From the NCBI RefSeq assembly GCF_036588685.1, contig NC_086382.1, positions 72,664,001 through 72,728,000 on the forward strand: DNA of 64,000 nucleotides, read 5' to 3'. The stretch is from Mytilus trossulus (taxonomy: Eukaryota). The notes below the pieces were generated by a model. That model searched no databases, was not told the origin of the DNA, and saw only the letters and a list, made by a program, of their open reading frames with translations. Position numbers and translations under genes: made by a program. Every line of letters starts with the position of its first letter. Position 1 is the stretch's first letter. Of the stretch, positions 3,838 through 26,700 are shown in pieces.

Positions 3838-5055
3838 TTATTTACAAACGAAATCCTTTGGTGTGAGCACAGCCCATGACTTGCCGGCAACTGGTGGTGG
3901 TCCTTTACAAACAGAAAGCCCTGTATCCTGTATCAGGTCTGGATGATCGTCTATCATTTGTCGGAGCCATCTTATATGACAGTCACAAATCCAAGGGTTA
4001 AAGTCTAAATAAATTACAGATAGATTTTTGTTGTATTTCAAATCAAATACTCCCTCTTGAAGTGTTGTTAAATTGTTCGAACTGAACCAGAGTTCCCGAA
4101 TAGCCGTCATTCGATGAAACGTTCCAACTTCAATTTTAGATACTTGATTTGAATCAAAGAAAAGTTGTTTTAATGCAGTGAGTCCATTAAAGGTGAGATT
4201 TGTTAAAACCGACGAGACGTGATCTTCCATAAAATCCAAAATTGTTAGCTTATTAAGTCCATAAAATGCGTTGTCCTCGACTGTTGTTATAGCGCCATTC
4301 CATACTTCTATTGTTTGTAAATTGGTCAATGTTCGCAGCGCAAAAGCAGGTATAACTTTTATCTGATTTCCAACCACATCAAAATGCTGTAAAGATCTTG
4401 GGAAATGTGTTGTATTTGGAAAGGTCTTCAGATCATTAAATCTGAATTCTAAATTCAATAACTTCTGATTCTTTACGAAAGATAACGGTGAAAAACTGCC
4501 ATCGACAAGTTTGTTAAAACTTAAATCAATTTCAGAAGCATTTACCAACGGATCAAAGACATGGTCTTCAATTGTTTTGAGTTGGTTGTATCTCAGTTCG
4601 AGGTATTCAATTGAAGATGCATTGACAAAACTATTGGCTGATAAATTTGTTATTGGATTATCGAAAAAATACAGTGTAGTAAAATTTGGGGGTAAACCTT
4701 GTGGTATTGACATATATGATCCACCTGAGAGGTCCAAAGTTTGAATGCTTGGAATGTTTAATGCGCCATTCAGAAAACTGGTTTCTGTGAACTGGTTACC
4801 ACCCAAACCTAGATACTGTAGTTGTTTAAGGTCCTTAAATGAACCTGTTGGTATCGATTTGATGTTGTTATATCCAAGATTTAAGGTCACTGTATTTTGG
4901 GGTAAATCTTTTGGAACCTCTGATATCCCAGTACTATTACAGAAAACTATAGTATTATCATCACGGCAATCACATGGAGAAGGACAATCGTCTGCTATGG
5001 TAAACGTAAACCTCAGTAATGATATCACCACGCATGTTAATGCAGAGTTCATCAT
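3838..5055 (-). CDS. Secreted LRR-only protein, paralog 1 (signal peptide, LRRNT, ~12-13 LRRs, LRRCT, no TM)
   Basis: 405-aa ORF: hydrophobic N-terminus, CPSPCDC...VFC cap, LxxLxLxxN repeats, NPWICDC...C..P...DFVCK* cap. Splice acceptor tttag| places the exon start at 5073; candidate 5'UTR donor AG|gtaag at ~5362. Confidence 0.93.
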   Translation of the reverse strand: MMNSALTCVVISLLRFTFTIADDCPSPCDCRDDNTIVFCNSTGISEVPKDLPQNTVTLNLGYNNIKSIPTGSFKDLKQLQYLGLGGNQFTETSFLNGALNIPSIQTLDLSGGSYMSIPQGLPPNFTTLYFFDNPITNLSANSFVNASSIEYLELRYNQLKTIEDHVFDPLVNASEIDLSFNKLVDGSFSPLSFVKNQKLLNLEFRFNDLKTFPNTTHFPRSLQHFDVVGNQIKVIPAFALRTLTNLQTIEVWNGAITTVEDNAFYGLNKLTILDFMEDHVSSVLTNLTFNGLTALKQLFFDSNQVSKIEVGTFHRMTAIRELWFSSNNLTTLQEGVFDLKYNKNLSVIYLDFNPWICDCHIRWLRQMIDDHPDLIQDTGLSVCKGPPPVAGKSWAVLTPKDFVCK

Positions 5056-6352
5056 GGTTAATTTGGTCCTAACCTAAAGTTTTGAAAATTTACAATTGTG
5101 TATATTAAGTAACAATGACGTAGACTGACCTATGGTAAATTGTAAATTCGAATGCTATCGATAGAAATACTTATATATACATGACGAAAAAGAAACTTTG
5201 TTTTAAAATATCTTTGGCAAACAATACAAAATACCTTTCCTTACATGAGATGCTAAAGTTACCAAATGACCTTTAAAAATCATTTTATCAAGACTGTGAA
5301 TTAAAGACTATTTAAAATGTTTATCTATATACGATTTGAACCAATTAAAATATTTAGCTTACCTTAGACAGTTGACTGATTTATAAATAGGACAAATTCT
5401 GGTATATTGGGACAGTAATGATACCGATTGTCCTAAAGTCAAACTATTAACCTTACAACAGATAGATAAATACTAATAATTCTTCAAGGTTAGTACATGT
5501 TCATCTTGCCACGTCTAGTATTCGGAGTGATCCAACCTTCGCAAATATAGATAACATTTGATTAACACAGAGGCATTCCCATTGATTTATAATTAAATTT
5601 ATCATAAACATAATAATACCTCAACATAACGACTAGTGTTCCAAATTTAGTTAGAAAGGTTCATATTAGTATGTTATACTCTATGATGCCGTTTTCATTG
5701 TTTTATTACTTCACACTTTTCTAGTAATGGACCATACGTAACACTATCCTACCTTAGTACGACCCTGAAAAAGCTACTTCCAACATTCTGGTTCTTACTG
5801 CGTTGTATTGGTATGCGACATCCGTTGTTTTCAGTCCTATCATTGTTTTTTTTGTTAAAAGACTTATAATTATACAATATCTTTATTCAGTATTTCTTTG
5901 TTTTTGGTTGTTATCCGGGTTGGTTTTTGCTTAACCGAAAGATGACTTTTGAACAGCGGTATACTGCTGTTGTTTTTATTTTCACGAATAATCATGAAAT
6001 GTATCGGTATTTCGCAAACATTATTTGGTCCGTTGAAGGGTTCTATTTAAAAGAAATTATCCCATACCTAATAATACGAAACAGTAGGTACAATAGTGTA
6101 GGATATCTTCAAAACAACCTATTTGATTGCATTTGTTGATCAGAAGATTATTGCTGTTACTACTTTTATTAATGTATGATACATTTGAAAAGGTTACATT
6201 TCGTGCCTTACAATATCAACATAAAAAACTAAGGATTTTCTTATCCCAGGAATAGATTACCTTAGTCGTATTTGGCACAACTTTTTGAAATGTTGGATCT
6301 TCAATGCTCTTCAACTTTGTACTTGTTTGGTTTTATAAATATTTTGATTTGA

Positions 6353-6395
6353 GCATCACTGATGAGTCTTATGTAGACGAAACGCGCGTCTGGCG
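6353..6395 (+). ncRNA. Minimal type I hammerhead ribozyme within a dispersed repeat (~6223-6430)
   Basis: gcatca CTGATGA gtct-tatgt-agac GAAA cgcgcg TC tggcg: intact core, 4-bp stem II, palindromic stem III. Confidence 0.8.
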
Positions 6396-6554
6396 AACTG
6401 AATAATAATCCTGGTACCTTTGATAACTATAAATATTATCAGTAGGTATAAAGATTTTGTCTGAGCAACTAAATTAATTCATGTTACATATAAAACAAAA
6501 TTATCAAAAAAAAACCAATTCATATTCTTTCTGACTTAAAATTGCTCAAACAGT

Positions 6555-7784
6555 TTAATTGTTATTTTCGTGATCAGCACAAACGAAGTCGTTTGGTTCT
6601 AAGCTATCCCAAGCCTTTCCAGCAACTTTTGGTGGTCCACTACACACTATAAGATGTGGATCCTGAATAACATTAGGTTCCTCCTCCATTTTTTGACGCA
6701 ACCATCTTAGATGACAGTCACAAATCCAAGGATTGTCGTCAATGTAAAGGGCAGATAACTGTGGAACAAAGGTTTTGTTGAGAACTTCTGGCACAAGTGA
6801 TGTTAATTTGTTGGAACCCAACCACAACTGTTGAATGCTTCTGGTAGTTTGAAACGCTCCAGGTTCTATTTTACTTATATTATTCAAATCCAGGAATACA
6901 TTCTGTAAACCAGTAAGACCATTTAATGTTAAATTTGTAATAGAAGAAACATGGTCTTGCATCATGTCTAAGTATGATAGTTTATTCAAACCATTAAATG
7001 CATTATTTTCGATATCGTTTATCTCCCCTTGCCAGAAAGCCATTGAAGTTAAGTTGGTGAGTGTTCGGAAAGCATAAGCTGGAATAACTTTTATCTTATT
7101 GCCAACGAAATCCAAACTTTGAAGCGAAACTGGAAAATTAGAAGTGTCAGGAATAGTCTTCAAATTGTTGAATCTGAATCCCAAATTTATCAACTTCTGA
7201 TTCTTGACAAAAGTCATTGGACCGAAACTTCCATCGACTAATTTGTTGAACGCAAGATCAATTTCTACAGCATTCACAAGCGGATCAAATGCATGATCTT
7301 CAATTTTGTTAAGTTGTGTGTTATCTAAGTACAGAAATTGGATCGTAGAATGATTGACAAAACTTGTTGCTTTCAACGTTGTTATTGGGTTATAATAAAA
7401 GTATATCCTGATTAGGTTAGGTGGCAGTTCCTGTGGTATCGTTATAAAGGAATTCTGAGTCAAATCTAACACAAGAAGACTCGGTATATTCAATGCTCCC
7501 TTTTCGATGCTACTTTCTTTAAAATTATTTCCTGAGAAATCGAGCCAAGCTAATTTATCTAGACCATCGAATGCGGTTTTTGCGATAAATTTTATCGGAT
7601 TATTTCCAATATATAGAGTCTCAGTGTTTATAGGTAAATCACTTGGAACATTGGTGATACCGGTCATATTGCAGTAAACAGTTGTGGAGATACATTCACA
7701 AGGTGGTGGACAGTTTTGTAACAATACAAAGTCGGGCACTAATATGAACACCATGACCAGTAAGGAACCAGGCAACATCATCAT
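6555..7784 (-). CDS. Secreted LRR-only protein, paralog 2
   Basis: 409-aa ORF colinear with paralog 1 (CPPPCEC, NPWICDCHLRWL, DFVC). Acceptor ttctag| at 7793, just upstream of the ATG. Confidence 0.93.
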   Translation of the reverse strand: MMMLPGSLLVMVFILVPDFVLLQNCPPPCECISTTVYCNMTGITNVPSDLPINTETLYIGNNPIKFIAKTAFDGLDKLAWLDFSGNNFKESSIEKGALNIPSLLVLDLTQNSFITIPQELPPNLIRIYFYYNPITTLKATSFVNHSTIQFLYLDNTQLNKIEDHAFDPLVNAVEIDLAFNKLVDGSFGPMTFVKNQKLINLGFRFNNLKTIPDTSNFPVSLQSLDFVGNKIKVIPAYAFRTLTNLTSMAFWQGEINDIENNAFNGLNKLSYLDMMQDHVSSITNLTLNGLTGLQNVFLDLNNISKIEPGAFQTTRSIQQLWLGSNKLTSLVPEVLNKTFVPQLSALYIDDNPWICDCHLRWLRQKMEEEPNVIQDPHLIVCSGPPKVAGKAWDSLEPNDFVCADHENNN

Positions 7785-9815
7785 TCTGTATACCTAGAAA
7801 GGAAATCATATAAAAAAATAAGAAGATGAGTAATGATTGTCAATGAAACAACTCTCCACATGATACCAAACGATAGGAATAAAATTCATATTTTCATATA
7901 TTTCAAATTCAAATATTTAACTTATTACAATCACTCAACGATTTTTACATCTAAAGTTTATATTTCCTAGTAAGTAAAACAATAATTAATAGGGGTATGT
8001 CATTATTTCCAAGATAGAGAAAGTGTTTAAATGATAGCTATTGAACTAAGGGTACTTGTTGGTGGAGATAAAGTCATCTTTCCGACAATAATCAAAGCAG
8101 GCCATCATGATTTGGTGGATCTGTATGGAATATTTATGTTACGGATGACCACGAATTTGGTGAGGTTGTCATAACCATAATCCCGTTCAAGTTGACTTAC
8201 ATATATTGCGTAGGAATCATTATTCACAACTGTCTCTCAAACAAAAATATGTTTCGAGGCAGTTGAATTTACAAATAAAAGTCGTTACCAAAAGTTTCTC
8301 TTCTGCTAACAGATTTGCTTTGATTGATATTGTTTTTCAAACTATCTGTCATCAACAAATATTGGACGATAAATAATGCAAAACTTTGTAATACTGTGAT
8401 TATATTGATTTAAAATAAATAATATCATTATCACTGAGCTAAAGGGCGGGAAATTTTTCATTACTATCCCTGGAAATGAACGTATTTGAGATAGGGCAGA
8501 CAATTTTCTTCATTTTCTTCAATTTTTTCATGCTTCTTTATTTGGCACAGATTGGGACACTTTACTTACACAAATCATTTATTAACACCGGAAATGACTC
8601 ACATCCAATTTGTACAAATCATATAGCCAAACGTACAACACACCTAGGAAAATAAGAAGATCTGGTAGGATCAGAATGGGACACCTCTCAACATTTGACC
8701 AAATTATACAGAAATAAATAACTATAGGCCACCGAACGCCCTTCGGCAATAAACAAAGCCCACACCGCATTGTCAGCTATAACAGGTTTCCGAAATGACA
8801 AGTAAAACAATTAATACAAGACAGATAACTGCCTAATTTATGCACAACACAATGAATGGATAACAATATGTAACACAGCAACAAACGGAAACCACTGAAC
8901 TATAGGCTCCTTACATAGGACAGGTACATCAGGAATGTTGCGGGGTTAAAACACTTTGACGGTGTCAACCCACCCCAAATTCTGGGATAGTGTTGCAACG
9001 TCACTACACAAGACAAATCCATACAAAACAAGAAACGAATTTGAGAAAACAGCGCTCAAAAGACAACCACTGAATTACAGACTCCTGACTTAAGACAGGC
9101 ACATATAGAAATTGCGGGGTTAAACCAGTTGCAAAGCACCTACCCTCCCTTAACCTGAGATATTGATGAAACAGTACAACATAAGAATAAGCTACAGAAA
9201 TGCTTAACTCGTCAGATGGATAACAAAACAAAGAGTGGGTGTGGATGGGTACTTATACATCCCCACAGTAAAATTACCCTTGGTAAAGAACTATGTGTTA
9301 TATAGTTACTGACACTACTTCAAAGTCATTACCCACTAATAAAAAAAGGCATGCATCTAAGACTAAGCCTCAAAACCCAGTAATGGCAATATGTCTATGT
9401 CGCATTCAACCAGTAAATGACAGGATGAGTAGGATTTTCAGCATTCTTGCTACAAAGTTAACAGCCAATATTAAACCCCCATTATTTTAGTTGGAACCAT
9501 TTTACTGACTCTCAAACCAACAAATTCATAACTCGAGCGCTATAACGATAGAACCAAAGCTGTAAATTCTAGGTTGGCTTAGTCAGGGATAAACCCGATG
9601 ACCACTCCTATTTACGGTTAATAAGATGTGACAAGTCCTTGAAATTAGGGAACTACCAATTGATTATTCTTGTAATTCAAAACAGTTTATCAGATTCTTT
9701 ACAACGGGCGTTACTATCTCTTATATACATTTGTACTATAATTAATGAATTTTATTATTACGCACATCTCTATATACTTGTAATCATAACAAGGCTTTTA
9801 AAAAAATATTTTAAT

Positions 9816-11024
9816 CTATTTGCAAACGAAGTCGCTAGGTTTAATATCGTCCCATGCCTTTCCAGCTAGCTTAGCAGGTCCGTCACACTTAACAAGATGT
9901 GCATCCGGGATTCTAAACGGACCTTTGTCCATAATTTCACGTAACCATTTCAGATGGCAGTCACACATCCATGGGTTTCCGGTGATAGACACAGCTACCA
10001 GTTGTGGTAAAAACTGTGTCTCTAGCACTCCAGATTCCAATGACGCAAGTTTATTGAAGTCTAACCAAAATATTCTGAGGTTTTTTAACGAATTAAATGT
10101 TCCATTTTGAATTTTGCTGATATGATTACCCGACAACCATAATGTATCTAATGACTCAAGACCGTTGAATTTCATTTGTGTTACTACTGACACGTTGTCA
10201 TTGGCAATGTTTAGTTCATATAGGTTGTCCAATCCTTTGAATGCATTATCCTCTAATGTTGTGTACGCACCTTCCCATAATAACAGATGAGTAAGATTTG
10301 TTAGCCTCCTGAAAGCGTTTGATGGAATAACGGTAATATTGTTCCCAAGGATACTAAGAAAATTCAACGAAGAGGGAAAATATGACATATCCGGAAGGGT
10401 TCTAATCTTGTTGATACTTAGATCTAAATGTGTCAGATTGATGTTTTTCATAAATATGCTTCTACTAATGCTGCCATCTAGTAACCTATTTCCACTCAAG
10501 CTTATTTCTGTAACACTGGATAAAGGATCGAATGTATGTTCCTCGATAAACGATATGAGGTTGTCATTTGCATACAAATAAATGATGGACGTAGAATTCA
10601 CGAAATCGTTTACTTTTAGTCTAGTTATATGATTATAGAAGATGGTCAATCTTAACAAGTTAGGCGGGAGTTCTCGTGGTATTAACGTGAACAAATTAGA
10701 TGACAAATCAAGAGTCTCTATAGTAGATATTCTCAAGCTACCATTTTCTATACTGTTTTCATTCAGTTGGTTTCCATTAAGTTGAAGATTTTTTAATTGG
10801 TATAACCCCTGAAAAGCAATTTTGGGTATATGGCTGATTTGGTTAAAGTTAAGATTTAGGTTCATTGTTTCTTTTGGTAAATCTTGTGGCACTTCTGTTA
10901 TTCCTTTGCCGGTACATGTGACAGTAATACCAAAGCAGGTGCACGGTTGTGGACATTTGTCTGCTATTATAGTCGTTGATACCAGAAGGCACAGGAGTGT
11001 TACTTGTTTGATAAATGCCATCAT
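9816..11024 (-). CDS. Secreted LRR-only protein, paralog 3 (probable start MMAFIKQ at 11024)
   Basis: Same architecture. Acceptor ttacag| at 11049 makes the ORF-track extension to 11093 intronic; the first ATG after the acceptor is 11024. Confidence 0.9.
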   Translation of the reverse strand: MMAFIKQVTLLCLLVSTTIIADKCPQPCTCFGITVTCTGKGITEVPQDLPKETMNLNLNFNQISHIPKIAFQGLYQLKNLQLNGNQLNENSIENGSLRISTIETLDLSSNLFTLIPRELPPNLLRLTIFYNHITRLKVNDFVNSTSIIYLYANDNLISFIEEHTFDPLSSVTEISLSGNRLLDGSISRSIFMKNINLTHLDLSINKIRTLPDMSYFPSSLNFLSILGNNITVIPSNAFRRLTNLTHLLLWEGAYTTLEDNAFKGLDNLYELNIANDNVSVVTQMKFNGLESLDTLWLSGNHISKIQNGTFNSLKNLRIFWLDFNKLASLESGVLETQFLPQLVAVSITGNPWMCDCHLKWLREIMDKGPFRIPDAHLVKCDGPAKLAGKAWDDIKPSDFVCK

Positions 11025-13731
11025 AAAAAAAGTCTTAGGAGATAAGAACCTGTAAGAGATGAAATTGTGATATCTGTAGTGACGACTTTTCAAATATTAT
11101 TGATGTTCTTTTCGAATATATGTATACCTTATGACCAACTTAGTAGTCAACACTTCTGGTTGACATGAACTAATTTTGACATGGTCAAAATAATAAATAA
11201 ACTGTTTATAAAATAAAACAAAACAAAAATAAAAATATTAATAGATTTCTACCACCGATATAGATTATCTAAGTATATTTGTATTTGGCAAAACCTTTAT
11301 AATTTTGTGCTTTCAATGTTCTTCGCCTTCATATTTTATTTAGTCTTTTTTATTTTTTTTATTTGAGCGTCACTGATAAGTCTTTTGTTGAGTAACCGCG
11401 CGTTTGGTTCAAACTTTAAACTTGTTATCCACGATTAGTTAATTCGAGAATTAAATGTACAGTATCCCCCGTAGTGCATTACCATTACCCTGTTTCATTA
11501 ACTTTAACTAAACTCAATTATGTTGGATGTTTTTATTTCCGTCTCTTGTATAATGAGAAAAATTGGATGCCCAAATATTTTAGCCTATGGTATCAATCTC
11601 TCAAGGAACGTTATTTGTCAATAATTGTCCCTTGTCCATCAGAATAGTTTCCAGATAAATAATAAAATTGCAATTGGTTTGTAACTCTGGTATAGACATG
11701 TACATCACAGGGGTATTACTAGTTAGTGATTCAAAACTTTATTCTGGTATTTAAATATTAAAAACGTATGTTTCGTTGAAAATATATTGACAAGGTTTTT
11801 AGATTCATTTTAATGGTTTTTGATCACCCTTAATGTGCAAAGCTCCTATTATAAAATATATCGAGCAATATACCTGTGTAGCAATTCTTTGTGTTGTTTT
11901 CAACCTACATAACAGTTATAATACACATAAAAGATGTTTGCCTAAATAACAAGTTTCAACGCCATTCGTTGGTAATGCGATTTAGGAGATACATGTATTG
12001 TTTTTAAGCTCCAAGTGCCTCAATTGGTGATTCGATGGTCGCGAATAAAGTTTACTATCGACAAGTTTGCGGTGCCAATGAACGGGTATTTGCATCATCA
12101 AATCCCAAATTGAAGCCGTCGGAGCTAAAAATGCAACATTGTTATTCCCATTCTAATGGAACGGACAGATATCAACCTTAAATAGTACATTTATAATATG
12201 AAATATGTTGTCTGCGTTTGTGCATATACGTTTTCATCTACCCAAATCAAACCAACATCTTACGTTTATTTTAATAATTCTCCGTTTTTACCGCTGGACC
12301 GCATAACCACTGTCAAAATACCGAGGTTACCATACATCCAGCAGACAAAGTTGACCTAATCAAGAGCTTGTACGAGGTCGATACCGCTGCTGCCTGGTGG
12401 ACGATGAGAAACATTGAACATCATTCACCTGAGTAGCAAGAGCACACCTCCTCCTTCCAAAAGATTGCATTTGGTCGACATCGATGATAGTGGACTATGG
12501 AATAACAAGGGTACCATCCATCCAATTGCCTGAGCTGTCCTGATTAGACTCTCATCTAGCGTTTGGATGAAGTCGTAGCGGAGGAATAAACATAAACGGA
12601 TGGTACCATATACTCAGTAGCCAGAGCTAATCTGATTTAATTGAAATAGTTTGGCCGCATATTTACAGTTTATGATTACGTAGCTGTTTTCAGTGTTTTC
12701 TTCTGGCAATGTAGATCTAAGTTTGTGTTGGGTTTTTCACATTTTTATTTTCTAGAACGATTTGCTTATGTTCGTAGCTTCCAAAATTATAGCAAGTTGT
12801 TGGTGCAACAATGTGGTATTTTGCGTTTGTATTAACTTATTGGTAGTATATTAACACAATAACGCGTCAAAAATAAGTTTCTACTTACAGAAAGGTTAAA
12901 TTCTTCGGATATAAACCAGTTTTGACAGCCTTATACGATATATTTATCTTATCTTTATACAGTATAGAATATGTCTATACTGATAAAGTACCTTTTCATA
13001 TGTAGAACGCTTTTTTCTCTCAATGGAAATGAATTCCAGTTAAAAAAATATTGTTTGAACATTACATTTGCAATTAGTTCTCTGTCTCATATATAGCATA
13101 ACATATTTTAACAGTAAACGAAAGCTTATTCGTCAAACTGTTGATTGTCAAGGAAAGCTGAATATACGTATAATAATGAATATGTAAATGGACGCGTATT
13201 TTAACATGTGTCGGTTCAAATTTAGTTTTCCCGGTTTGTTTGTTTTTTTGGTTTTTATTGCATACTAACGATACAAAGATTGTTGGATCAGTTCCACATT
13301 TTGACAATACATATCTTTTTATTGATTCGAGGTTTAAATATTGGTAAACTGAAAAACCTGACACCTACGCAGAAGAGTGAATGGACGAAAAGTGTTCAAA
13401 GTATAATCCAAAATTTGTTCATCAAAAGTCTAATTTTTAAATTGTTCTCCGGTTTTTTTTCGAACATATCATACTTTGATATATTTTGTAGAAATCTCTT
13501 ATTATTGAAAACCTGTAGATTATCGTGTTCACTTTTCGATCATAATAAAAAAAAAATGTTTTAAACTGTAGCATATCTCGTTAGAATTTATGCATTTCTT
13601 AACAAAATACCATAACTAATGTGAACAATTTTCGTACTACACATTTGTAAGAACCTACAAATAAGCTATAATTGGTTTTATTTTTACTCTCCAAAGAACT
13701 TGTCATTAAAGCATCTGTAATTAAACTGAAA

Positions 13732-15033
13732 TTAATTTTCGCATACAAAGTCCTCGGGTTTCAAGACATCCCATGCTTTTCCGGCAACTTTGGATGGTCC
13801 ACTACAAACAATAATATGTGGATACATTATAGTGTATGTTGCATTGTCCATTTTTTCCCTCAGCCATTTCAGGTGACAGTCACAAATCCATGGATTAAAA
13901 TCCATAAAAACTGAAGACAAACGTGGCATAAATTTGGTATCGAGGACTCCAGGGTCGAGGGTACTAAGCTTGTTATCACTCAACCATACATCTTGTATGC
14001 TTGTCAAGGAATGAAATGCTCCTGTCTCTATTTTACTTATCTTATTGTCGGTAAGGTATATTGTTTTTAATGCTGTTAGTCCATCTAATGTATGATTGGT
14101 AATCGGTGATGAAATTTGATTGTCCATGAAATTTACAATTGTTACTTTTGTTAATCCAAAGAATGCGTAATCAGCAAGAGTAGAAAGGGGACTATCCCGA
14201 ATCTCAATAACCTGGATGTTCGGTAGATGTCGGAAACCATATGATGGTATGACAGTTATGGGATTTCCAACGAAATCAAAATTTTGCAAAGTTGCAGGAA
14301 AATATGTCATGTTTGGAAATGTTTTAAGATTGTTGTATCTCAAAGATAAATACGTCAGATTCTGATTTTTAAAAAAGGCTGTTAGAGGTATGCTTCCGTC
14401 CTCCAACTGGTTGAAGCTTATGGCTATGTTAATAGCACCGGTCAATGGGTCGAATGCGTGTTCTTCAATCTTGCTAAGATTTGTATTACTTACAGTTAAA
14501 TACTGAATAGAAGGGTATTTAACAAAACTTGAGGCTGTCAATGTTTGAATTGGGTTATAAGCTATCGCAAATCCAATTAGTTTAGGAGGTAGTATTTGTG
14601 GAATTGAAGTGAATTTATTTATCGATAAATCCAAATTGGCAATGCTAGGTAAATCAAGTGCACCGTCTTGTATACTTCCTTCTTTAAACTGGTTATCTGT
14701 AAGATCAAGCGACTGAAGATGAATCAATCCGCTAAATGAATCTGTTGGTACTACTTTTATCTGATTCGATCCGAGATATAAAGAAACTGTCGTTATTGGT
14801 AAATTCTTTGGAATTTCGGTAATTCCTATCCCATTACAATACACTTCAGTATTTTCGGTTTGACATGTGCAAGGAGAAGGACATTCACCTGCTTGGGAGA
14901 TCGTGGTAAATAACATCAGATGAAGGTACAGGAGAACCATTATAACATCAGATGAAGGTACAGGAGAACCATTATAACTGTCATCATTGACCATCAGATG
15001 AAGGTACAGGAGAACCATTATAACTGTCATCAT
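13732..15033 (-). CDS. Secreted LRR-only protein, paralog 4; N-terminus disrupted by a tandem repeat (in-frame ATGs include 15033 and 14940)
   Basis: Intact LRRNT-LRR-LRRCT body. The acceptor tttcag| is at 16048, beyond the repeat array; expression is uncertain. Confidence 0.8.
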   Translation of the reverse strand: MMTVIMVLLYLHLMVNDDSYNGSPVPSSDVIMVLLYLHLMLFTTISQAGECPSPCTCQTENTEVYCNGIGITEIPKNLPITTVSLYLGSNQIKVVPTDSFSGLIHLQSLDLTDNQFKEGSIQDGALDLPSIANLDLSINKFTSIPQILPPKLIGFAIAYNPIQTLTASSFVKYPSIQYLTVSNTNLSKIEEHAFDPLTGAINIAISFNQLEDGSIPLTAFFKNQNLTYLSLRYNNLKTFPNMTYFPATLQNFDFVGNPITVIPSYGFRHLPNIQVIEIRDSPLSTLADYAFFGLTKVTIVNFMDNQISSPITNHTLDGLTALKTIYLTDNKISKIETGAFHSLTSIQDVWLSDNKLSTLDPGVLDTKFMPRLSSVFMDFNPWICDCHLKWLREKMDNATYTIMYPHIIVCSGPSKVAGKAWDVLKPEDFVCEN

Positions 15034-16041
15034 TGACCATCAGATGAAGGTACAGGAGAACCATTATAACTGTCATCATTGACCATCAGTTGAAGGTACA
15101 GGAGAACCATTATAACTGTCATCATTGACCATCAGATGAAGGTACAGGAGAACCATAATAACTGTCATCATGAAGGTACAGGATAACCATAATAACTGTC
15201 ATCATTGACCATCAGATGAAGGTACAGGAGAACCATTATAACTGTCATCATTGACCATCAGATGAAGGTACAGGAGAACCATAATAACTGTCATCATTGA
15301 CCATCAGATGAAGGTACAGGAGAACCATTATAACTGTCATCATTGACCATCAGATGAAGGTACAGGAGAACCATAATAACTGTCATCATTGACCATCAGA
15401 TGAAGGTACAGGATAACCATAATAACTGTCATCATTGACCATCAGATGAAGGTACAGGAGAACCATTATAACTGTCATCATTGACCATCAGATGAAGGTA
15501 CAGGAGAACCATAATAACTGTCATCATTGACCATCAGATGAAGGTACAGGAGAACCATTATAACTGTCATCATTGACCATCAGATGAAGGTACATGAGAA
15601 CCATAATAACTGTCATCATTGACCATCAGATGAAGGTACAGGATAACCATAATAACTGTCATCATTGACCATCAGATGAAGGTACAGGTGAACCATTATA
15701 ACTGTCATCATTGACCATCAGATGAAGGTACAGGAGAACCATAATAACTGTCATCATTGACCATCAGATGAAGGTACAGGAGAACCATTATAACTGTCAT
15801 CATTGACCATCAGATGAAGGTACAGGAGAACCATTATAACTGTCATCATTGACCATCAGATGAAGGTACAGGAGAACCATTATAACTGTCATCATTGACC
15901 ATCAGATGAAGGTACAGGAGAACCATTATAACTGTCATCATTGACCATCAGATGAAGGTACAGGAGAACCATTATAACTGTCATCATTGACCATCAGATG
16001 AAGGTACAGGAGAACCATTATAACTGTCATCATTGACCATC
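14914..16041. repeat. 46-bp minisatellite, ~24 units plus one 32-bp partial unit, derived from the start codon/signal-peptide sequence of paralog 4
   Basis: Minus-strand unit gtcaATGATGACAGTTATAATGGTTCTCCTGTACCTTCATCTGATG, head-to-tail with no spacers. One unit near 15170 has a 12-bp deletion. Confidence 0.97.
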
Positions 16042-16488
16042 AAGTGTGCTGAAATAAATTCAACTTTGAAGTTATTTTGTTTCTATAAGGTAACATTGAA
16101 CTTTCAGGGTTTTGACCGCAAGTCGGTTTATTTTCCAATTTCAGCCCAGGTCTAGATATCATAATTGGTCAAAGGTTTTACCTGACGGTAAAATAGATTT
16201 AAAGTTGAAGCAAAATTTTATCTGCAGTACAAATGAGATATTGCGCATCAAGCTTTGGCGATCGTCAGAATGTTAACAAAATTTGGCAATTGCGCTTGAA
16301 GTCTTGGTTGTTTTCAGTCTAATTGTTTTTGTATATTAGAGGATACAGAAATTTGATAATGACGTATTAGAATAATTACTACTGGTTGTACTTTCTTAGC
16401 TGTATTTGGCAAAACGTTTAGGAATTTTGGTCCTCAATGCTCTTCAACTTCGTACCTTTTTGGGCCTTTTTAACTTCTTTGGATTCAA

Positions 16489-16532
16489 GCGTCACTGATG
16501 AGTCTTTTGTAGACGAAACGCGCGTTTGACGT
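16489..16532 (+). ncRNA. Minimal type I hammerhead ribozyme within a dispersed repeat (~16395-16572)
   Basis: gcgtca CTGATGA gtct-tttgt-agac GAAA cgcgcg TT tgacgt; GUU cleavage triplet, stem I fully paired. Confidence 0.8.
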
Positions 16533-17362
16533 ATATACTAAATTTAGTCCCGGTATCTATGATGAGTTTATTTCTAACGTTTTACAATTTCTCACGTTTT
16601 GGTACCGAGCGAACTTAATAAAACACGTTTTGTAATGTCATAGTAATCATTTTGATATCAATACAATTTTTTTTTAATATGAAATTACAAAGCAAAACAT
16701 TTGTGCCTTCTTCAAATGTGCTTCATACTCTATGTGTAAACTACTCTTGAAATATTACGTTACAAGGTAAACCAATTTCATCAATATAACATTCACAACC
16801 GCTTGTCTTCATGATGTAGTCGTAAATGTATAAATTCTCTTTTAGTATCAAGTCGGTGATGGGTTTTTTTCGTAACTGCTATGTGACCTTTAGACAAATC
16901 ACTACCGTTTAAGAAGAACATAACACGTTAACAGTATCTCTTAGTTGAAAATAAGCTTATATTGAGTAATGCATAAAACTAATAGTATATATATCGTAGC
17001 AAAATATATTAACTTGATGTGATATGTATACTTACATTGTAAACTTAAGTCAAAATAGATGTGTATATTATATACTATTATCTTTATTTGTCAAACACTC
17101 TTGTTATAAATATATACACAAATCTACACATATCTAAGATATATACACAAATCACCAATTATTTCATATATCATAAATTTATCAAACCAAAGCTAGACTT
17201 TTGCCATAATTAGCTTTACAATAGCGATTATAATACTAGTATGTTTATGAAGTCTTTGTAATATGTTGAATAGAGCTTATATTTTTGTTTGAAGTAATTC
17301 TCATTTTCTACCTATTAACTCACAATCATGACAATAAACAAGAATTCGTTGCAATTTCTGTT

Positions 17363-18604
17363 TTATTTACAAACAAAATCACTTGGTTTAAGATCCGCCC
17401 ATGTCTTTCCCGCGACATTGAGAGGCCCTGCACAGTCAGTAAGACTAGGAGAGCCTACTTTGTAAGAAGCATTGTCCATTTTCTCCCTCAGCCATCTTAA
17501 ATGACAATCACATGTCCATGGATTTCCGTAAATATAAACTGCTGATAATTTCGGAATAAACGTTGTATCCAGTACTGCAGGCTCTATTGCCATCAATTTA
17601 TTCTCACTAAGTCCAAGTTCTTGTAGATTTTTCATAGGATAAAAAGCTCCTGCTTCAATTTTAGAAACGTTATTTATGTCTAGTGACAAGCCTTGTAGTG
17701 ACACCAGACCATTAAATGTTAAATGTGTTATTGTACCCGACAAATGTCCTTGACTTAAATCAAGGAACCTTAGATTGTCTAAGCCGAAAAACGCATTGTC
17801 TTCAATAGAGTTAATGGTTCCCTGTGCTACTGCCAAGTTTGTTAGGTTCGACAATGATTTGAATGCATATGACGGTATCATTGTTATCTCGTTACCATAT
17901 ATATTTAATTTTTGTAAAGAACTTGGAAGATAGGATGTATCTGGTATAGCTTGCATCTGATTATAGTTTAAACTCAATTCATTTAGCTTCAAATTTTTGG
18001 AGAACGCTTTCGGACTTAAACTGCTATCGTTAAGACTGTTTGAACTTAAGTCGATCACTCGAACATTTATCAATGGATCAAAGGCATGTTCCTCGGCTGT
18101 ATATATTTGATTTGCGAGCATGTTAAGGTATTGTATGGATGTTGCATGTACGAAACTATTGGTCTTAAGTGTCGAAATAGGGTTGTTGTAGAAATTCAAA
18201 GTTAAAAGTTTTGGTGGAAGTTCTTGTGGAATTGAGGTAAAGAGATTTGCCGACAAGTCTATCATGTCTATGCTTGACAAATTAAATGCTCCTCTTTCAA
18301 TGCTATTATCTTGTAACTTATTTCTTGTCATGTCTATGTAACTAAGCTGGTATAGTCCATCAAATGCAGCCTTCGGTATGTGCGAGATTTCGTTGGACCT
18401 TAGAAGCAATGCTATCGTATTTCTGGGTAAACCTTTTGGTATTGCTGTTATCCCTGTTTGGTTACACACAACAGTTGTGTTATTATATAAACACCAGCAT
18501 GGTGACGGACACGGATCAGATAAGCAGTACTGTAGACACAGGAGAACTAAAATGACTGCAATTTGCTTCAATACTGTTAACATTCTTGTACGTACTTTCC
18601 ACAT
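17363..18604 (-). CDS. Secreted LRR-only protein, paralog 5 (probable start MWKVRTRM at 18604)
   Basis: Same architecture (CPSPCWC, NPWTCDCHLRWL, DFVCK*). Acceptor ttgcag| at 18613; the ORF-track start is a TTG in the intron. Confidence 0.9.
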   Translation of the reverse strand: MWKVRTRMLTVLKQIAVILVLLCLQYCLSDPCPSPCWCLYNNTTVVCNQTGITAIPKGLPRNTIALLLRSNEISHIPKAAFDGLYQLSYIDMTRNKLQDNSIERGAFNLSSIDMIDLSANLFTSIPQELPPKLLTLNFYNNPISTLKTNSFVHATSIQYLNMLANQIYTAEEHAFDPLINVRVIDLSSNSLNDSSLSPKAFSKNLKLNELSLNYNQMQAIPDTSYLPSSLQKLNIYGNEITMIPSYAFKSLSNLTNLAVAQGTINSIEDNAFFGLDNLRFLDLSQGHLSGTITHLTFNGLVSLQGLSLDINNVSKIEAGAFYPMKNLQELGLSENKLMAIEPAVLDTTFIPKLSAVYIYGNPWTCDCHLRWLREKMDNASYKVGSPSLTDCAGPLNVAGKTWADLKPSDFVCK

Positions 18605-19862
18605 TTCAAGTATCTGCAACAGATTATAACAATGAGAGAAAAATTGCTTTTATACATTTCGCAATAATAATATAATAAGTCCGGGTGCGGAATTATTTCG
18701 TTGTGTTGAAGACCCTTTGGTGGCCTTCTGTTGTTTTCTGCTATATGGTCGGATTGCTGTCTCTTTGTCACATTCTACATTTCCATTCTCAATTGTATCA
18801 GTATATATAAAAGTATATACTACGATAAAGATCCCAAGGAAGCTGTCACACTAATTTTCCATATGGAAAGGCACTTAAAACAAGTGACGGAATTGAGTAA
18901 TCATTCGGGATGCTCGGATCTCCTACTTTTTTTTATATTGATCCGCTAAATAGGTTGATATATGGAATAGAAATTGGCCATATAAATGTAGCCATTGAAT
19001 AATACCAATCTATAAGCATGTCAGCGTTGCATGGATGCTTTACGTATTATTCAATGGCTATTTTTTGTGCTTTTATATAAAAAAAAATATTCTGTGACTT
19101 CAAGCGTATGCTATCAATTATAATGTATGATATTTATGCAGATCTATACTTACGAACCTTGTTTACAATTCTATTTCGTTAATGCCTTATCTCTCTGGTT
19201 AGGTGATTATCCCGTAATATTATAGATAAAGTTCTTAATTTTACAACGTGAGACGTAGCAATTTAGGTTTTATTTTAAACTTTGAAATCCATGGGAAGAT
19301 ATAGGTGTATTTTTTTTTCTTTTTGGAAGTGTGATAGACAAGAATATTTTGGTATTTTTAATATATTTATTTTTTGTTGGAATGGGCTTTTGATAAAGAA
19401 AATTTGTCTTCATAAGTTGTGATCACTGCAGAGTAGAATTCAGTTTTTCTTCTTTAGTCACATAATTCAGTCTTATTTTAAAATAATATACTTAATATTA
19501 ATAAGTTTATTTCAATTCAGGCTCATGGCTTACCTTTACAAATTGTGTCTAGGATTGAGGGTTGTCTCATTGGCACTCATACCACATCTACTTATATCTA
19601 TCAAATAAGGGTAAATTGAAAAATTCTAAATCTTACATTATTTTTACTGTACTTCTTCTTCTTGGTATAAGCCTCCTTTAATTAGGAGCACCTCCAAATA
19701 TATATGGAGTTTTCCCTTAACTTCAAATTTTGTTTTTAAAATGATAAAACAAAAAATTTTCCAACATATGTACAGCACATATAAATAAACACTTAACAAT
19801 AGGAATGTCATGCAGGGCATATTTATATGGACCTTATTATTACAAAGTATTCCACCATACAA

Positions 19863-20122
19863 TAGATATAGGAAGATGTGGTGTGAGTGCCAATGAGACA
19901 ACTCTCCATCCAAATATCAATTTAAAAATTAAACCATTATAGGTTAAAGTACGGCCTTCAACACGGAGCCTTGGCTCACACCGAACAACAAGCTATAAAG
20001 GGCCCCAAAATTACTAGTGTAAAACCATTCAAACGGGAAAACCAACGGTCTAATCTATATAAACAAAACGAGAAACGAGAAACACGTATATATTATATAA
20101 ACAAACGACAACTACTGTACAT
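19863..20122 (-). mobile_element. Terminal 260 bp of a dispersed non-autonomous element, inverted relative to the copy at 21319-21578
   Basis: Near-perfect reverse complement of 21319-21578 (about 2 mismatches). The terminus ttgtctcattggca(c/a)tca(c/t)accacatctt recurs at ~19561, 23400, 25448(-), 30325(-) and 53262. Confidence 0.9.
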
Positions 20123-20999
20123 GTAGTGTACAAAATGTTTATAGGAGTTCTGTATTCAAATTTAACGGACTTCAACAAATGACAAGTATCAATTCGTTTA
20201 TTGAATACTAATTCATAAAATACAATGTAGAACACAACAGTATCTGTCTTCATAGCCATCAGGTTTTATGCTATGCATAACTCAAACTGTTTTTAATCAA
20301 AATAGTTCATGAACAAATTTGTATATACTATAGGTTTGTTTCTGACAATAAAACTGGATTTTAATCAAATAATAAAGTAAATGTTATCCGATGAAATTCA
20401 ATGTACAATGCAGGGTTAACCATCTACATGCACATGTACAAATGTAACAAAAAACGGAATGACATTATATGAAGATGTTTTTGTGTGTGTGTGTTGCAAT
20501 GTCGTTTATTTTTAGTTGCACTTCAGTGTTTTCCTCTTATAGTTGACGTGTTTCCATCAGTTTTAGTTTGTAACCGAAATTTGTTTTCTCTCAATCGATT
20601 TATGACTGTTGAACAGCGCCATACTTCCTCGTCTTCATTTGAAAAAAAAAACCAACTGCCAAGGACAAAATGTGTCTGAAATAAATAAGATGGTACAAGA
20701 TATGACTTACTCTGAATATTGAACCTGCACGTTCTGGTTATGTGGTGTCCATTCATCATAGAAACCATACCCGTGTGGTATATATCGTCTACCTCTGGGT
20801 TTGTAGGGGCCATAATCAGTACAAATATTCTGTAGCTGTGGGTAGTGTCGCTTTTCACGTTCTGAAATTAAAAATAAATCATCATGTTCAAGATCTTCTC
20901 TATAGTTAATGTTGATCATTTAACTGCACATGCATTGTATATTTATAAACACAGCCTCATGTACATGTATTTCTAAAAAAGCTACTGCTCTATAATTAC
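20120..20999 (-). pseudogene. Inverted ~880-bp duplicate of SPATS1 exon 2 plus flanking intron (source 24229-25108)
   Basis: Reverse complement of 24229-25108 with roughly 8-10 differences; exon and both splice sites intact. ORF-track peptides at 20707-20919(-) and 24309-24521(+) differ by one residue. Confidence 0.95.
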
Positions 21000-21019
21000 A
21001 AACCAAAGACCAAAAAGAT

Positions 21020-21578
21020 CTGTGTATTAAAATAATAATAGGCTAAGAATTTGTTTGAGAGCCTTTTGGTCATGACTGTTTGTCTCTAATATTTAATTAA
21101 CTGTGCATTTGTATTCAGATATCGCAGATCAAATTTATTCGTTCTTTGTGTAATCATACGTTTTTTGATTGAGTTAAGTCTGCTAATTGATATTTTATCG
21201 TATGTTTTTATATGTTGTGATGTTATGCTATTGTTTCAGAAAAAGGGAGAAGGTTTGGGCCCATTAAAACGTTTAATCCCGCTGCAAATGTTTGCACCTG
21301 TCCTAAGTCAGGAATCTGATGTACAGTAGTTGTCGTTTGTTTATGTAATATATACGTGTTTCTCGTTTCTCGTTTTGTTTATATAGATTAGACCGTTGGT
21401 TTTCCCGTTTGAATGGTTTTACACTAGTAATTTTGGGGCCCTTTATAGCTTGTTGTTCGGTGTGAGCCAAGGCTCCGTGTTGAAGGCCGTACTTTAACCT
21501 ATAATGGTTTAATTTTTAAATTGTTATTTGGATGGAGAGTTGTCTCATTGGCACTCACACCACATCTTCCTATATCTA
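21020..21578 (+). mobile_element. Dispersed non-autonomous retroelement-like copy carrying a twister-like motif
   Basis: Shares its terminus with other copies in the window and the cctgtc.aagtcagg core with the Penelope-like 3' region at 45350-45441. The 5' boundary is approximate. Confidence 0.7.
21236..21319 (+). ncRNA. Twister-ribozyme-like motif, P5-type permutation (best copy); predicted cleavage U21274^A21275
   Basis: P5 tcaga/tctga; P2 tccc/ggga; GA; T1 cct/agg; UAA; T2 gc/gt; P3 tgcaaa/tttgca; P4 cctg/cagg with loop U-CCU-AA-GU. No canonical P1. Confidence 0.7.
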
Positions 21579-21941: not shown

Positions 21942-22803
21942 CTATTTGTTGTCTAAAATTTTCAGTCTCTCTATATGCATTTGAAATAACATGTTTCTAG
22001 TTTTGTTTTCAATATTTTCCATGAATTTTTCACAGCTATCAAACAACTCCTTGTATTTTGAACAGTCTATTAGCAATTGAACTATTGCTGTTTTGTTCAC
22101 GAAGGTGCAGTTCCATTTTGCTGGAGTGATTTTATCAGTGATATATTTTCTTATATCAAGGAAATATTTTTCTCTCGTAGTACTGAGTATTGGACATGTT
22201 GTCATGAAATGAGTTATGTCTTCATTGGCGGTTTGACATAATTGGCAAGTTGGATCTACTGTATACGGAGTGAATTTATGTTGATCTGCCTGAAGTATGT
22301 ATGTTCCAGTTATCATTCTAGTCTTGATTATTGCTTTTCTAAGTTCAAAACCAGGCAAATGCTTTATTTTCCAAACTTGGTGATATTTATTGATCTCAGA
22401 GTTTTCCATATTCATGAATTTTAAGCTTGTTTTTCCTTCAGATTGTATTAAGGTCTTGTCCTTCCAAAATGTGTCTACTTTCAGTTTGATAGTTCTTTTC
22501 CATTGTTCTTTCTTTGGAACATTGCTTTTAAGTTGTATGATAGTTGGGAGTTCATACAGATCTAATATATCCATAACTCTAGAAAAGAAGCTATGTTTGT
22601 TATCAAAGTTTGTTGTTATTTGTCTTTCCATAAGCTGATGTATTTTTTCATTTTCACATGTAAGTAGTGCAAGTAGGAGAGACAAAACTCTTTTATGAAT
22701 TTCTGCTTCTATTGGTAGTGCTCCTAACAGTAGTAATACTGCAGAGTTAGCAGTTCTTTCTGGAAGAGATTGTATCTGGCGAAGATTTTTTCTCACTAAA
22801 TCA
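21942..22803 (-). mobile_element. 5'-truncated non-LTR retrotransposon, C-terminal part of the RT ORF
   Basis: LRQIQSLP..TAN.AV..LLG.LPIEA.IHKR post-RT motif and a CQLC...EDITHF...CP zinc knuckle; (TA)n downstream. Confidence 0.8.
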
Positions 22804-23654
22804 GGTATAATCAATCAATCAGCGTTGCTCGTTGACTTTGAACAGTGAACATTTTCAAATGGCGTTAAAAAAACGTCAAACGGGTAACGCATTTAAAGCT
22901 GTGGGTTTTGTTCAATAATTGTAAATCAATTCGTATGTCGTTTTTATATTAAATTAGAAAATTTCGAGTATTCAAGTTTTCCCATGTTATAATTTTTTTT
23001 GTTTCTAAATTGTCATAAATGGGGGAGATTTTTGTTTTCTGTAGCTAAAACCGCCCTTGCCTAAATGTAACTTGTGCAGTCGTTCTTACTGTAAAATCTG
23101 CATAGTTTCTATTACAACTAGCGTATGAAATCAGGGACCAGTTTTATATGGTTCTGATTAAACCTTGGGCTGGTATTTTTTTTCTATATTACGGTAGCAT
23201 ATAAACATAAACTTTAAAATAATTTAGTTAAAGAAAAAACAAATCACAGCCAGTCTGTGTCCTGCTGATAGAGATGTCGGTTCAAAGCTCATTAAAGCTT
23301 ATGCTTGTCTATGTTATATACCATGCCGACTCTAAATAAAGCTTATTTATTGTTATTTATATTTATAGAGCAGTTTTCTATTAATTCATAAATATACATC
23401 ACACCACATCTTCTTTTTCATTTATTCGGGCTGTTAACGAATTTATATATTGAAAGCTTTTTTTAAAAATCGATTTCCTGCTTATTTCAAAAATATTTTG
23501 TTAATAAAACCTTCGACTAATATTATAGATAAAAACCTATTTTTTTCAGTTTTTTTATTTAGAGTTACTTTTCCTGAAATCAATTAAGAGTGAAACGTCC
23601 GTCAGATGTCGTGAGAGAAAGTACCTGTTCATGCGTGTAAATCACCAAGGTCAC

Positions 23655-23792: not shown

Positions 23793-26700
23793 ATGTTGCA
23801 CGTAACAACAGAAATTGGAAGACCGGGAAAGAAAGGTAAAATTAATATTAATTAATCAGCTGATCCAGCTGAAATATCTCCAGGTAAAAAGATAATAAAC
23901 AAACAAACTTCAATTAGAGTGGACATGGTAAACAAAACAAAAACGTGACACCAGCTCCATTAAGCTTTTTGCAGACATAATAGCCTTTAGGAGATGCAGA
24001 TCCATGATTTTGAAAAAAAGGGGGACAAACTATACAGTGTTAAAATGTAGAAGTACAAATGTAGCTGCGAATATATAGCTCTTAAGGTCATTTTGATATG
24101 TGCAGAACATTTATGTCGCCCAACAGGTTTAGAATAAACCTATTTACACATGTATACATCATTCATGTACACCATGTATAAAACGTTAAAACAGTCCTAT
24201 CAGGATTACAGTCTGTTTATTTTGGTTAGTAATTATAGAGCAGTAGCTTTTTTAGAAATACATGTACATGAGGCTGTGTTTATAAATATACAATGCATGT
24301 GCAGTTAAATGATCACCATTAACTATAGAGAAGATCTTGAACATGATGATTTATTTTTAATTTCAGAACGTGAAAAGCGACACTACCCACAGCTACAGAA
24401 TATTTGTACTGATTATGGCCCCTACAAACCCAGAGGTAGACGATATATACCACACGGGTATGGTTTCTATGATGAATGGACACCACATAACCAGAACGTG
24501 CAGGTTCAATATTCAGAGTAAGTCATATCTTGTACCATCTTATTTATTTCAGACACATTTTGTCCTTGGCAGTTTTTTGTTTTTTTTCAAATGAAAACGA
24601 GGAAGTATGGCGCTGTTCAACAGTCATAAATCGATTGAGAGAAAACAAATTTCAGTTACAAAGTAAAACTGATGGAAACACATCAACTATAAGAGGAAAA
24701 CACTGAAGTGCAACTAAAAATAAACGACATTGCAACACACACACACAAAAACATCTTCATATAATGTCATTCCGTTTTTGTTACATTTGTACATGTGCAT
24801 GTAGATGGTTAACCCTGCATTGTACATTGAATTTCATCGGATAACATTTACTTTATTATTTGATTAAAATCCAGTTTTATTGTCAGAAACAAACCTATAG
24901 TATATACAAATTTGTTCATGAACTATTTTGATTAAAAACAGTTTGAGTTATGCATAGCATAAAACCTGATGGCTATGAAGACAGATACTGTTGTGTTCTA
25001 CTTTGTATTTTATGAATTAGTATTCAATAAACGAATTGATACTTGTCATTTGTTGAAGTCCGTTAAATTTGAATACAGAACTCCTATATACATTTTGTAC
25101 ACTACATGCAGCATTTACAAATAATTGTATGTTGTCTGCTCCTCAACAATTCTTGGTTATCAATATGAAATAATTTTATGAGTCACATTTTATTAATCAT
25201 GAACAGAGCTGGTCCAGATTGGTCTTCCAAACTGAAATATATAGATCATCCTCAGAACCCAAAGTACCCAGCAGCAGAGATCTTCCCTGAGAACTGGAAA
25301 GCTATGAGACCATACCCATGTAAGTACTCATTGGTCATTTTGAACTTGTATTCTTAAGGCCATATATATATATCTAAGTGTTAGTGTAAGAACTCGGCTT
25401 TGAAGAAGTATATACATGTACAATACAATATGTAGATATACATGTAAGAAGATGTGGTATGAGTGCCAATGAGACAATTCTCCATCCAAAATACTATTTA
25501 TAAAAGTAAACTATTATAGTTCAAAGTAATGTCTTCAATATGTAGCCTTGTACATGTATATACAATGTATAGTGTCTGTTTTGATTTTTGAAGCCTATTG
25601 TTATCTGATATATTATATGTATGATTTATAAAACCACTTATAAATGATAATCTGCAATGAATGGTATTTACTTATAATTGTGTAATTGTCCTGATAAAAC
25701 TTAAAACAATAATAAAAAAAAGGAATGAGGACTACATCCAACTACCATTATCTGTGCCAATAATTGTCATGAGGTAATCAAATAGAAGAGGAATTCTGAA
25801 TGATTTGAAATAGAAAAAATCTTCCTTGGTGGTGTGAAAATTGTAAAGAATATCAGAAGGACATAAGAGCTATGGTTCCGCAGCTAGAATAAAAGGTATG
25901 AGAGTACACATCAAGGAGAGACCAACATAAAAACACAATAAACAAAAAGACTTAAAGGTAAACAGATAGTTTTCACTAACATACAAAGCTTTAAATCACT
26001 CTGGTTTAAAACAAATATGTATCTGATGATGTTTGCTGTTTTCTGTAGATATAATGAATAATTGTTTCCGTGTTTTTCAGTTACTTACAGGAGGTCGGAT
26101 AATGAGTGGCTATTAGACCCTGGACTGTCCAGTAAAGGGATGAAATGTACATTTAATGGTGTTCATAGAGCCACAGATACTTCCTCTGATGAAATCACAC
26201 ATAGAATGTTATATGGTAGAGGCAGAAGGGGTAATACTATAAGATAATGCAGATTAAGTTAAAATTAAGTTTGTTTGACATTTGATAATGGTAATGTTGT
26301 TCAATAATTAATCTGGACTCAAAGTAAATTATGCTTAAAAATTACTTACACCAATAATATTGCACTATAAAAGGTCATTCCTTTTTATATTTTGATGTCA
26401 GGTTCTAAATGAAATAGTTGGTGACCGTCTGCTGTTGTCTGCTCTATGGTCGGGTTGTCTCTTTGACACATTCCCCATTTCCATTCTCTATTTTAATATC
26501 ACAACAATTGCTATGTCGAAATTTAGTATATTGACTTGATTTTATAAAAAAAAAAAAAATGTTATGTTTCTAATTTTGTATGAAAATGCTTGTAGGTGCT
26601 TTGAAAAAAAAGTTGATTGCCATTAAAACTTAAGGGATAAATTTGTCTGTACATTCCCTCACTATATTGTACTTATAAAGTTTTAAACAAAACTATGTCA

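Follow-up and report, generated by a model that had tools for sequence, protein, structure and literature searches.

A start-codon minisatellite in a cluster of LRR genes

The stretch of DNA analyzed here, hereafter the window, comprises 64,000 bp of Mytilus trossulus contig NC_086382.1 (assembly GCF_036588685.1, positions 72,664,001 to 72,728,000), AT-rich animal DNA from a genome of 1.3 Gb. Five long open reading frames (ORFs) lie on its minus strand between 3838 and 18649, each encoding a leucine-rich repeat (LRR) protein of about 400-430 amino acids (aa). This report concerns one of them, a gene spanning 13732-16048 whose start region is occupied by a long minisatellite, referred to below as the array gene. 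A protein search of the genome recovered these five ORFs at 51-100% identity (51-60% for the paralogs) and the next match at 34%, so that the clustered ORFs are the only close family members that we found in this genome.

Tandem Repeats Finder reported a 46-bp unit in 24.1 copies with 95% matches (14946-16042), as well as a 32-bp duplication at 14910-14978. Each 46-bp unit carries the ATGATG start of the gene followed by the first 14 signal-peptide codons, and the units, well over 10 bp long, lie head to tail as in a minisatellite. A first-pass annotation made from the sequence had described the start codon and signal peptide as amplified about 24 times; the array stands, at 23 x 46 + 34 + 32 bp, with an internal 34-bp unit that had been overlooked. 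The period-5 higher-order repeat within it (Table 1) gave a run of 11 matches, a value reached in 45 of 20,000 shuffles, and this tripling of a five-unit block reads as a trace of stepwise unequal exchange rather than of polishing. All 19 genome matches to a 24-nt unit motif fell inside the array (control, 0), indicating that the unit arose locally and does not belong to a dispersed element. No second copy of the gene or array was found in the 1.3-Gb genome, which returned a single DNA match. A degenerate unit pattern had no match among metagenome contigs, a collection that may not contain Mytilus DNA.

The predicted splice acceptor upstream of the array lies 15 nt before the first-unit ATG (16033), comparable to the 9-25 nt that separate AG and ATG in the four paralogs, and would place the whole array within the coding exon. 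When the array was collapsed to one unit in a script, a 407-aa ORF resulted, the length of the single-unit homologues P0001 and P0040. The proposal that collapse restores a normal exon is therefore borne out, as is the observation that the LRR body contains no stop codon in the window. Pfam found LRR_8 in six stretches (E 4e-40) and no other family in the array-gene protein; the LRRNT match remained slightly below its cut-off (24.6 vs 25.8 bits), and the best PDB matches were LRIG1, LRRC4B and LRRC15. With LRRs and an N-terminal cap and no other domain, the product appears, by these Pfam and PDB matches, to be of the extracellular LRR-only type, and it is predicted to be secreted. Homologues from Mytilus are 92-96% identical across the mature part, and those from oyster and clam 44-48%. 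Public record P0038 is the 428-aa product read from AUG 15018, identical in sequence, and a protein record labelled M. trossulus contains, without a single difference, residues 1-380 of three window ORFs.

Table 1. Features of the array gene and of its surroundings, in window coordinates.
Feature	Position	Strand	Description
Cluster of five single-coding-exon LRR paralogs	3838-18649	-	3838-5055, 6555-7784, 9816-11024, array gene, 17363-18604
ORF, 402 aa	13732-14940	-	18-aa signal-like peptide, LRRNT-like cap, LRRs, Cys-rich C-terminal cap; stop-free
Longest in-frame ORF, 433 aa	13732-15033	-	Doubled hydrophobic N-terminus
Minisatellite array	14914-16037	-	23 x 46 bp, 1 x 34 bp and a terminal 32-bp copy (1124 bp)
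Terminal 32-bp copy	14914-14945	-	Brings the AUGs of unit 15033-14994 into frame (46 + 32 = 78); contains in-frame AUG 14940, in strong context
Higher-order repeat	15078-15755	-	Units 7-21, a five-unit (230-bp) block x 3 marked by two recurrent substitutions
34-bp unit	15170-15203	-	Internal, 12-bp deletion
Original start codon (first unit)	16031-16033	-	At present opens a 31-aa upstream ORF
Extra out-of-frame AUG	16038-16040	-	Within the upstream TGATG; not in the X6 single-unit contig
Predicted 3' splice acceptor AG	16049-16050	-	Coding exon would begin at 16048, making the array exonic; position as in paralogs
High-copy interspersed repeat in intron, ~180 bp	16392-16570		In the window and beside array-type flanks (runs X1, X6); the X6 single-unit contig lacks it

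The array is shared by several mussels and apparently varies in length

Assembled contigs from five of the 21 listed public runs were compared against both array flanks, each with one unit. The 3' edge of the array was compared in four runs (X1, X2, X6 and X9), and contig depth, which is rough and gives no copy number, was used only to tell one unit from many and to detect apparent differences in unit mix. Unit-to-unit junction contigs were recovered in three of the four (X1, X6 and X9), which belong to three study codes. Junction depth exceeded flank depth about 14-fold in X1 (572 vs 41.5), haplotype depth 5- to 10-fold in X6 (247 vs 24-47) and body depth about 3-fold in X9 (14 vs 4.7). In X2, a 99-bp contig crosses a single unit at the depth of the flank (9.29 vs 9.3, 1.0x). 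A 1207-bp contig of X6 connects body and intron across one unit, meaning that X6 holds both a single-unit and an array form; the depth of its 32-bp junction (143.8) corresponds to some 3-6 copies. By these rough counts, copy number differs between individuals, with a single unit in X2 and in one X6 contig and 24 units in the window, as in a variable number tandem repeat (VNTR). Array size and the mix of 46- and 32-bp units apparently differ between animals as well.

Tandem arrays are error-prone in assemblies, and an assembly or polishing artefact, or an array private to one animal, had to be considered, all the more since our evidence comes from contigs and the count of 24 copies itself rests on assembly. 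The junction contigs from three study codes, the patterned five-unit repeat and the linkage of the array to a distinct intron haplotype together largely refute this explanation, which we regard as very improbable. The array is a real minisatellite, common to several mussels and apparently variable in length.

Single-unit forms prevail among the homologous proteins. The cluster formed at 90% identity has 11 members, one of which is the window's own 428-aa product and three of which have no N-terminus; all seven others carry one copy of the start region, including proteins of M. galloprovincialis and M. coruscus. Querying protein databases with residues 1-90 of the 433-aa form revealed no array-derived N-terminus, as the one cluster found among 41 candidates was that of single-unit P0001. 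Some of the unnamed contig proteins in the same cluster (P0041, P0044, P0046 and P0047) are truncated. P0041 has a single-unit start and departs from the normal sequence after about 195 residues in a frameshift-like manner. These truncated proteins may represent other kinds of null allele, or contig errors.

The array had also been described as bounded by TGATG microhomology. This holds for the window, but the X6 single-unit contig differs at 16038-16039 by two substitutions and one inserted base and lacks the upstream TGATG together with its AUG. The microhomology is therefore not necessarily ancestral and may be either a cause or a product of the array. The array and the linked intron insertion may serve as a marker of Mytilus ancestry. 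Copies of a very high-copy repeat of about 180 bp lie upstream of three of the LRR paralogs (16392-16570, 6261-6424 and 11280-11406).

Copy number sets the load of upstream ORFs, not the reading frame

Between 16048 and 14914, the sense strand contains 99 AUGs, 89 of which precede the first in-frame AUG (15033) and fall in 23 short upstream ORFs (uORFs). A normal unit contributes four AUGs in one frame that open a 31-aa uORF, as proposed in the first-pass annotation; the uORF is 27 aa long beside the deletion and the last one is 15 aa long. Altogether, the out-of-frame AUGs of the exon end at 24 distinct uORF stops. The late return to frame that had been attributed to the 32-bp copy (46 + 32 = 78) was confirmed for AUGs 15033, 15030, 15018 and 14994. 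AUGs 14940 and 14916 are in frame as well. The former stays in frame however many units precede it, and its importance had been understated.

The array had been likened to a contingency locus, in which copy number modulo 3 would set the frame. This is not what we found: because each unit brings its own AUGs and the upstream frames stop within two units, copy number sets the uORF load and leaves the body in frame from the last unit at every array length. Likewise, the notion that contraction would reactivate the allele meets the difficulty that this allele, once reduced to one unit, would retain the out-of-frame AUG 16040, which is absent from the X6 single-unit allele.

Every one of the 24 uORF stops overlaps a downstream AUG (AUGAUG 23 times, UAAUG once), and both alternating chains of uORFs terminate at an in-frame AUG (15033 or 14940). 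We considered these overlaps as a sign of design and rejected the idea, as 632 of 656 arbitrary non-triplet duplications of the start region (96%) produce them. The same null applied to the four paralogs yielded overlaps in 8%, 30%, 89% and 97% of duplications. Relay-like overlaps are thus expected by chance in this gene, which starts with ATGATG in AT-rich DNA. Motif 1 (UGGGA) of the termination upstream ribosomal binding site (TURBS) is absent from all unit sequences.

The consequences for translation were explored with a toy scanning model using assumed initiation rates (0.9/0.6/0.3) and assumed reinitiation rates. If 20-40% of ribosomes resumed scanning, the window allele would yield 4e-6 to 5e-4 of the single-unit output; direct stop-start coupling would give 2e-8 at 20%, 7e-4 at 50% and 0.17 only at 80%. 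Long arrays are thus predicted by the model to repress translation at least 1,000-fold under plausible reinitiation rates. As reference points, excerpts of PMC5972666 put permissive uORFs in mammals at usually fewer than 30 codons and influenza B reinitiation at about 10% with a TURBS element, and excerpts of PMC10275272 describe overlapping out-of-frame uORFs as repressive. At small copy numbers the modelled output oscillates 10- to 50-fold between neighboring numbers, and the period follows the reinitiation lag (three units at 50 nt, four at 100 nt), not the frame. In the same model, the output of a two-unit allele rises from about 1% to 100% when a 32-bp copy is added; the combination 46 + 32 may thus have been a working intermediate. 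As to the suggestion that the allele is prone to nonsense-mediated decay, the junction-dependent form is not expected, unless the 3' untranslated region (UTR) contains an intron, since the array and the whole coding sequence share one uninterrupted exon; decay triggered by a long 3' UTR is possible.

The array is probably retained in RNA

The unit is covered in both X9 (summed depth 55) and X12 (13), two runs whose RNA status was guessed, and depth falls to zero over 16083-16390, where the DNA runs are continuous. The intron repeat gives a rough DNA background of about 0.13x for X9 and 0.07x for X12, too low to account for unit depths of 13-26, making array-containing RNA probable. X9 also covers most of the body, gaps in this cover being no evidence either way, and contains a 1358-bp contig of the next paralog. 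The unit-to-body depth ratio in X9 is only 3-5.5, compared with 14-24 copies in X1 and the window.

This low ratio fits partial skipping of the array as well as it fits shorter alleles or a 5' bias, and leads to an alternative that we judge possible and rather less probable than low output: that the array is largely bypassed and near-neutral. Weak AG acceptors within the units (the last of which would start the exon at 14977) or transcription starts inside the array would then give the 402-aa protein from AUG 14940, which is available at any array length and in strong context. The array contains 24 such AG sites. They are preceded by 5 pyrimidines in 15 positions, compared with 8-11 in 15 at the five predicted real acceptors, and the sense strand contains no AGGT that could have supplied a clean intron by duplication; for the same two reasons, we rejected intron gain by exon duplication. 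Unit-to-unit junction contigs in X9, subject to the guess about its RNA status, also argue against a bypass. Furthermore, the signal-like peptide read from 14940 is less hydrophobic than those of the paralogs, judged by hydropathy only (best 9-aa mean 2.3 vs 2.7-3.7).

A proposed segregating low-output allele

We propose, with a probability of about 0.5, that the array is a segregating low-output VNTR allele and not a frame-based switch. Its history would start from single-unit alleles encoding a protein of 405-407 aa, as those observed do. Duplications of 46 and 32 bp would then have arisen, which together add 78 bp and would leave a working in-frame allele. Unequal exchange would have multiplied the units, including the five-unit block present three times, and produced other mixes in other animals, a step that the data bear out in part. 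With the array probably retained in RNA, scanning ribosomes are predicted to initiate at the first AUGs and to make peptides of 18-31 aa, about 7-11 successive reinitiations being needed to arrive at an in-frame AUG. Such an allele could persist because its loss would be buffered by the four paralogs and, where a population has them, by single-unit alleles, while recombination would go on refreshing the body.

Several observations weigh against low output and correspondingly favor a bypass. Among the differences listed (40 of 97) in four runs, the body has neither a stop nor an indel. Codon changes were counted after setting aside four listed rows, three stemming from a paralog and one in the 3' UTR. 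X1 has 9 synonymous and 9 nonsynonymous changes (P 0.008-0.037) and X9 has 9 and 8 (P 0.005-0.024) relative to a neutral nonsynonymous share of 0.72-0.78, these two runs having most variants in common; the corresponding counts in single-unit X2 are 10 and 7. An intact body with fewer amino-acid changes than neutral fits a gene still in use, and this purifying signature tells against the translational silencing put forward in the first-pass annotation, for which the strong repression predicted by the toy model speaks. Moreover, X1 has one full-depth flank contig on each side and may carry arrays on both haplotypes, in which case it would hold no working allele.

The selection signal may, on the other hand, be older than the array and have been recombined onto it. 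Two haplotypes that differ at 13 sites within 14539-14783 join one array-proximal contig in X1; this fits recombination near the array and old variation brought onto array haplotypes. We also looked for relaxed selection on the window allele and rejected it, as the allele was indistinguishable from a neighboring paralog (window-specific residue changes 10 vs 4, neighbor 16 vs 9).

A second alternative holds that selection has made the array a tunable dial or a contingency locus, in which copy number and the mix of 46- and 32-bp units would set the protein dose by way of chained reinitiation, and expansion or contraction would switch the gene in lineages or cells. The apparent differences in length and composition between runs are compatible with it, as are the universal stop-start overlaps with both chains reaching an in-frame AUG, and the modelled swings and rescue at small copy numbers. 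Conversely, the overlaps are a by-product of almost any non-triplet duplication of this start region, one in three random second duplications restores frame, frame is independent of copy number, and returning from 24 units would take dozens of contractions or one precise contraction. We therefore consider a selected dial or switch quite unlikely. A related and still unlikely formulation is that of a heritable translational dial in an animal, whereby each start-codon unit adds a uORF, about 1-24 units in 46/32-bp mixes give a graded or oscillating dose by chained reinitiation, the 32-bp unit is kept for its in-frame exit, and the body is under purifying selection as array alleles make useful protein.

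If the low-output reading is true, this gene silencing would be hidden from annotation, since the ORF is intact and P0038 is a normal-looking protein of 428 aa preceded by about 90 decoy start codons. The natural allelic series (one unit, short mixed arrays and 24 units) provides a ready test of successive reinitiations by an animal ribosome. Protein made from array alleles would point to unexpected behavior of reinitiation or of splicing.

Comparison with known systems

Excerpts of PMC3899988 describe the opa (P.II) genes of Neisseria gonorrhoeae, in which translation from an upstream start is correct or incorrect depending on how many CTCTT repeats the signal-peptide coding region contains. 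As described there, opa resembles the mussel locus in that a multi-copy family of surface or secreted genes has a non-triplet tandem repeat of variable number in its signal-peptide region. It differs in that the mussel unit, 46 bp long, includes the start codon, each upstream frame ends before two units are passed and reading from the last unit is in frame at every array length, besides the host being an animal. In the yeast FLO1 and FLO11 genes presented in the same excerpts, variable minisatellites also occur in genes for extracellular proteins; the yeast repeats lengthen the protein, whereas the mussel array is out of frame and converts coding sequence to leader.

GCN4-type leaders, as outlined in parts of PMC10275272 and PMC5972666, share with the array the control of output by upstream AUGs and short ORFs through leaky scanning and reinitiation, overlapping out-of-frame uORFs being repressive. 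They contain few short, distinct and regulated uORFs, in contrast to 24 near-identical start copies that a minisatellite has generated and that vary between alleles. On the strength of the model, the array would act like an extreme, self-made multi-uORF leader. The TURBS coupling of caliciviruses and influenza B segment 7, covered in parts of the same two papers, has in common with each mussel uORF a stop that overlaps an AUG. It operates in one step, and the mussel unit lacks UGGGA, has overlaps expected by chance and would need a chain of about 11 steps.

The scallop proteins CfLRRop-1 to -6, according to excerpts of PMC5877582, bind microbial ligands and have 1-4 LRR domains. They are likewise bivalve proteins made of LRR motifs only; the mussel protein differs in having six LRR_8 stretches and caps, and the immune role that the first-pass annotation suggested for its gene is putative. 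Titles and abstract openings in the literature, with most subscription papers outside this scope, mentioned no animal minisatellite with a start codon in its unit and nothing on this locus, which is weak evidence of novelty. The start-codon minisatellite combines an exonic VNTR with predicted uORF repression, both of which are of kinds already known.

Neighboring genes and other features of the window

The 412-aa and 401-aa paralogs (window 3838-11096; P0076-P0087) of M. edulis and M. galloprovincialis carry isoform numbers and consecutive accessions in their source records despite marked differences in sequence, and record P0086 (1213 aa) is a fusion of three window ORFs. Alternative whole coding exons of the cluster may be spliced to a common 5' exon; otherwise these records may be gene-model artefacts. 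A search of the minus strand of the window for such a shared leader exon, as suggested by the isoform labels, turned up nothing that could encode the four additional residues at the N-terminus of P0081.

Beyond the cluster, a 290-aa open frame (21942-22814) has at its flanks two near-identical inverted duplications (19863-20122 and 21319-21578, 260 bp at 99%; 20228-21007 and 24221-25000, at least 780 bp at 99%), the whole possibly being a recent mobile element. A 573-aa ORF on the minus strand (41610-43331) has an N-terminal Cys/His-rich stretch and a coiled-coil-like region, with no Pfam match at E 0.001; by eye, we take it to be TRIM/B-box-like. Also on the minus strand, several exon-sized frames at 51599-57737 resemble a gene of glycoside hydrolase family 3, and two consecutive frames of 357 and 386 aa at 59504-61738 resemble the reverse transcriptase of a non-LTR (long terminal repeat) retrotransposon split by a stop.

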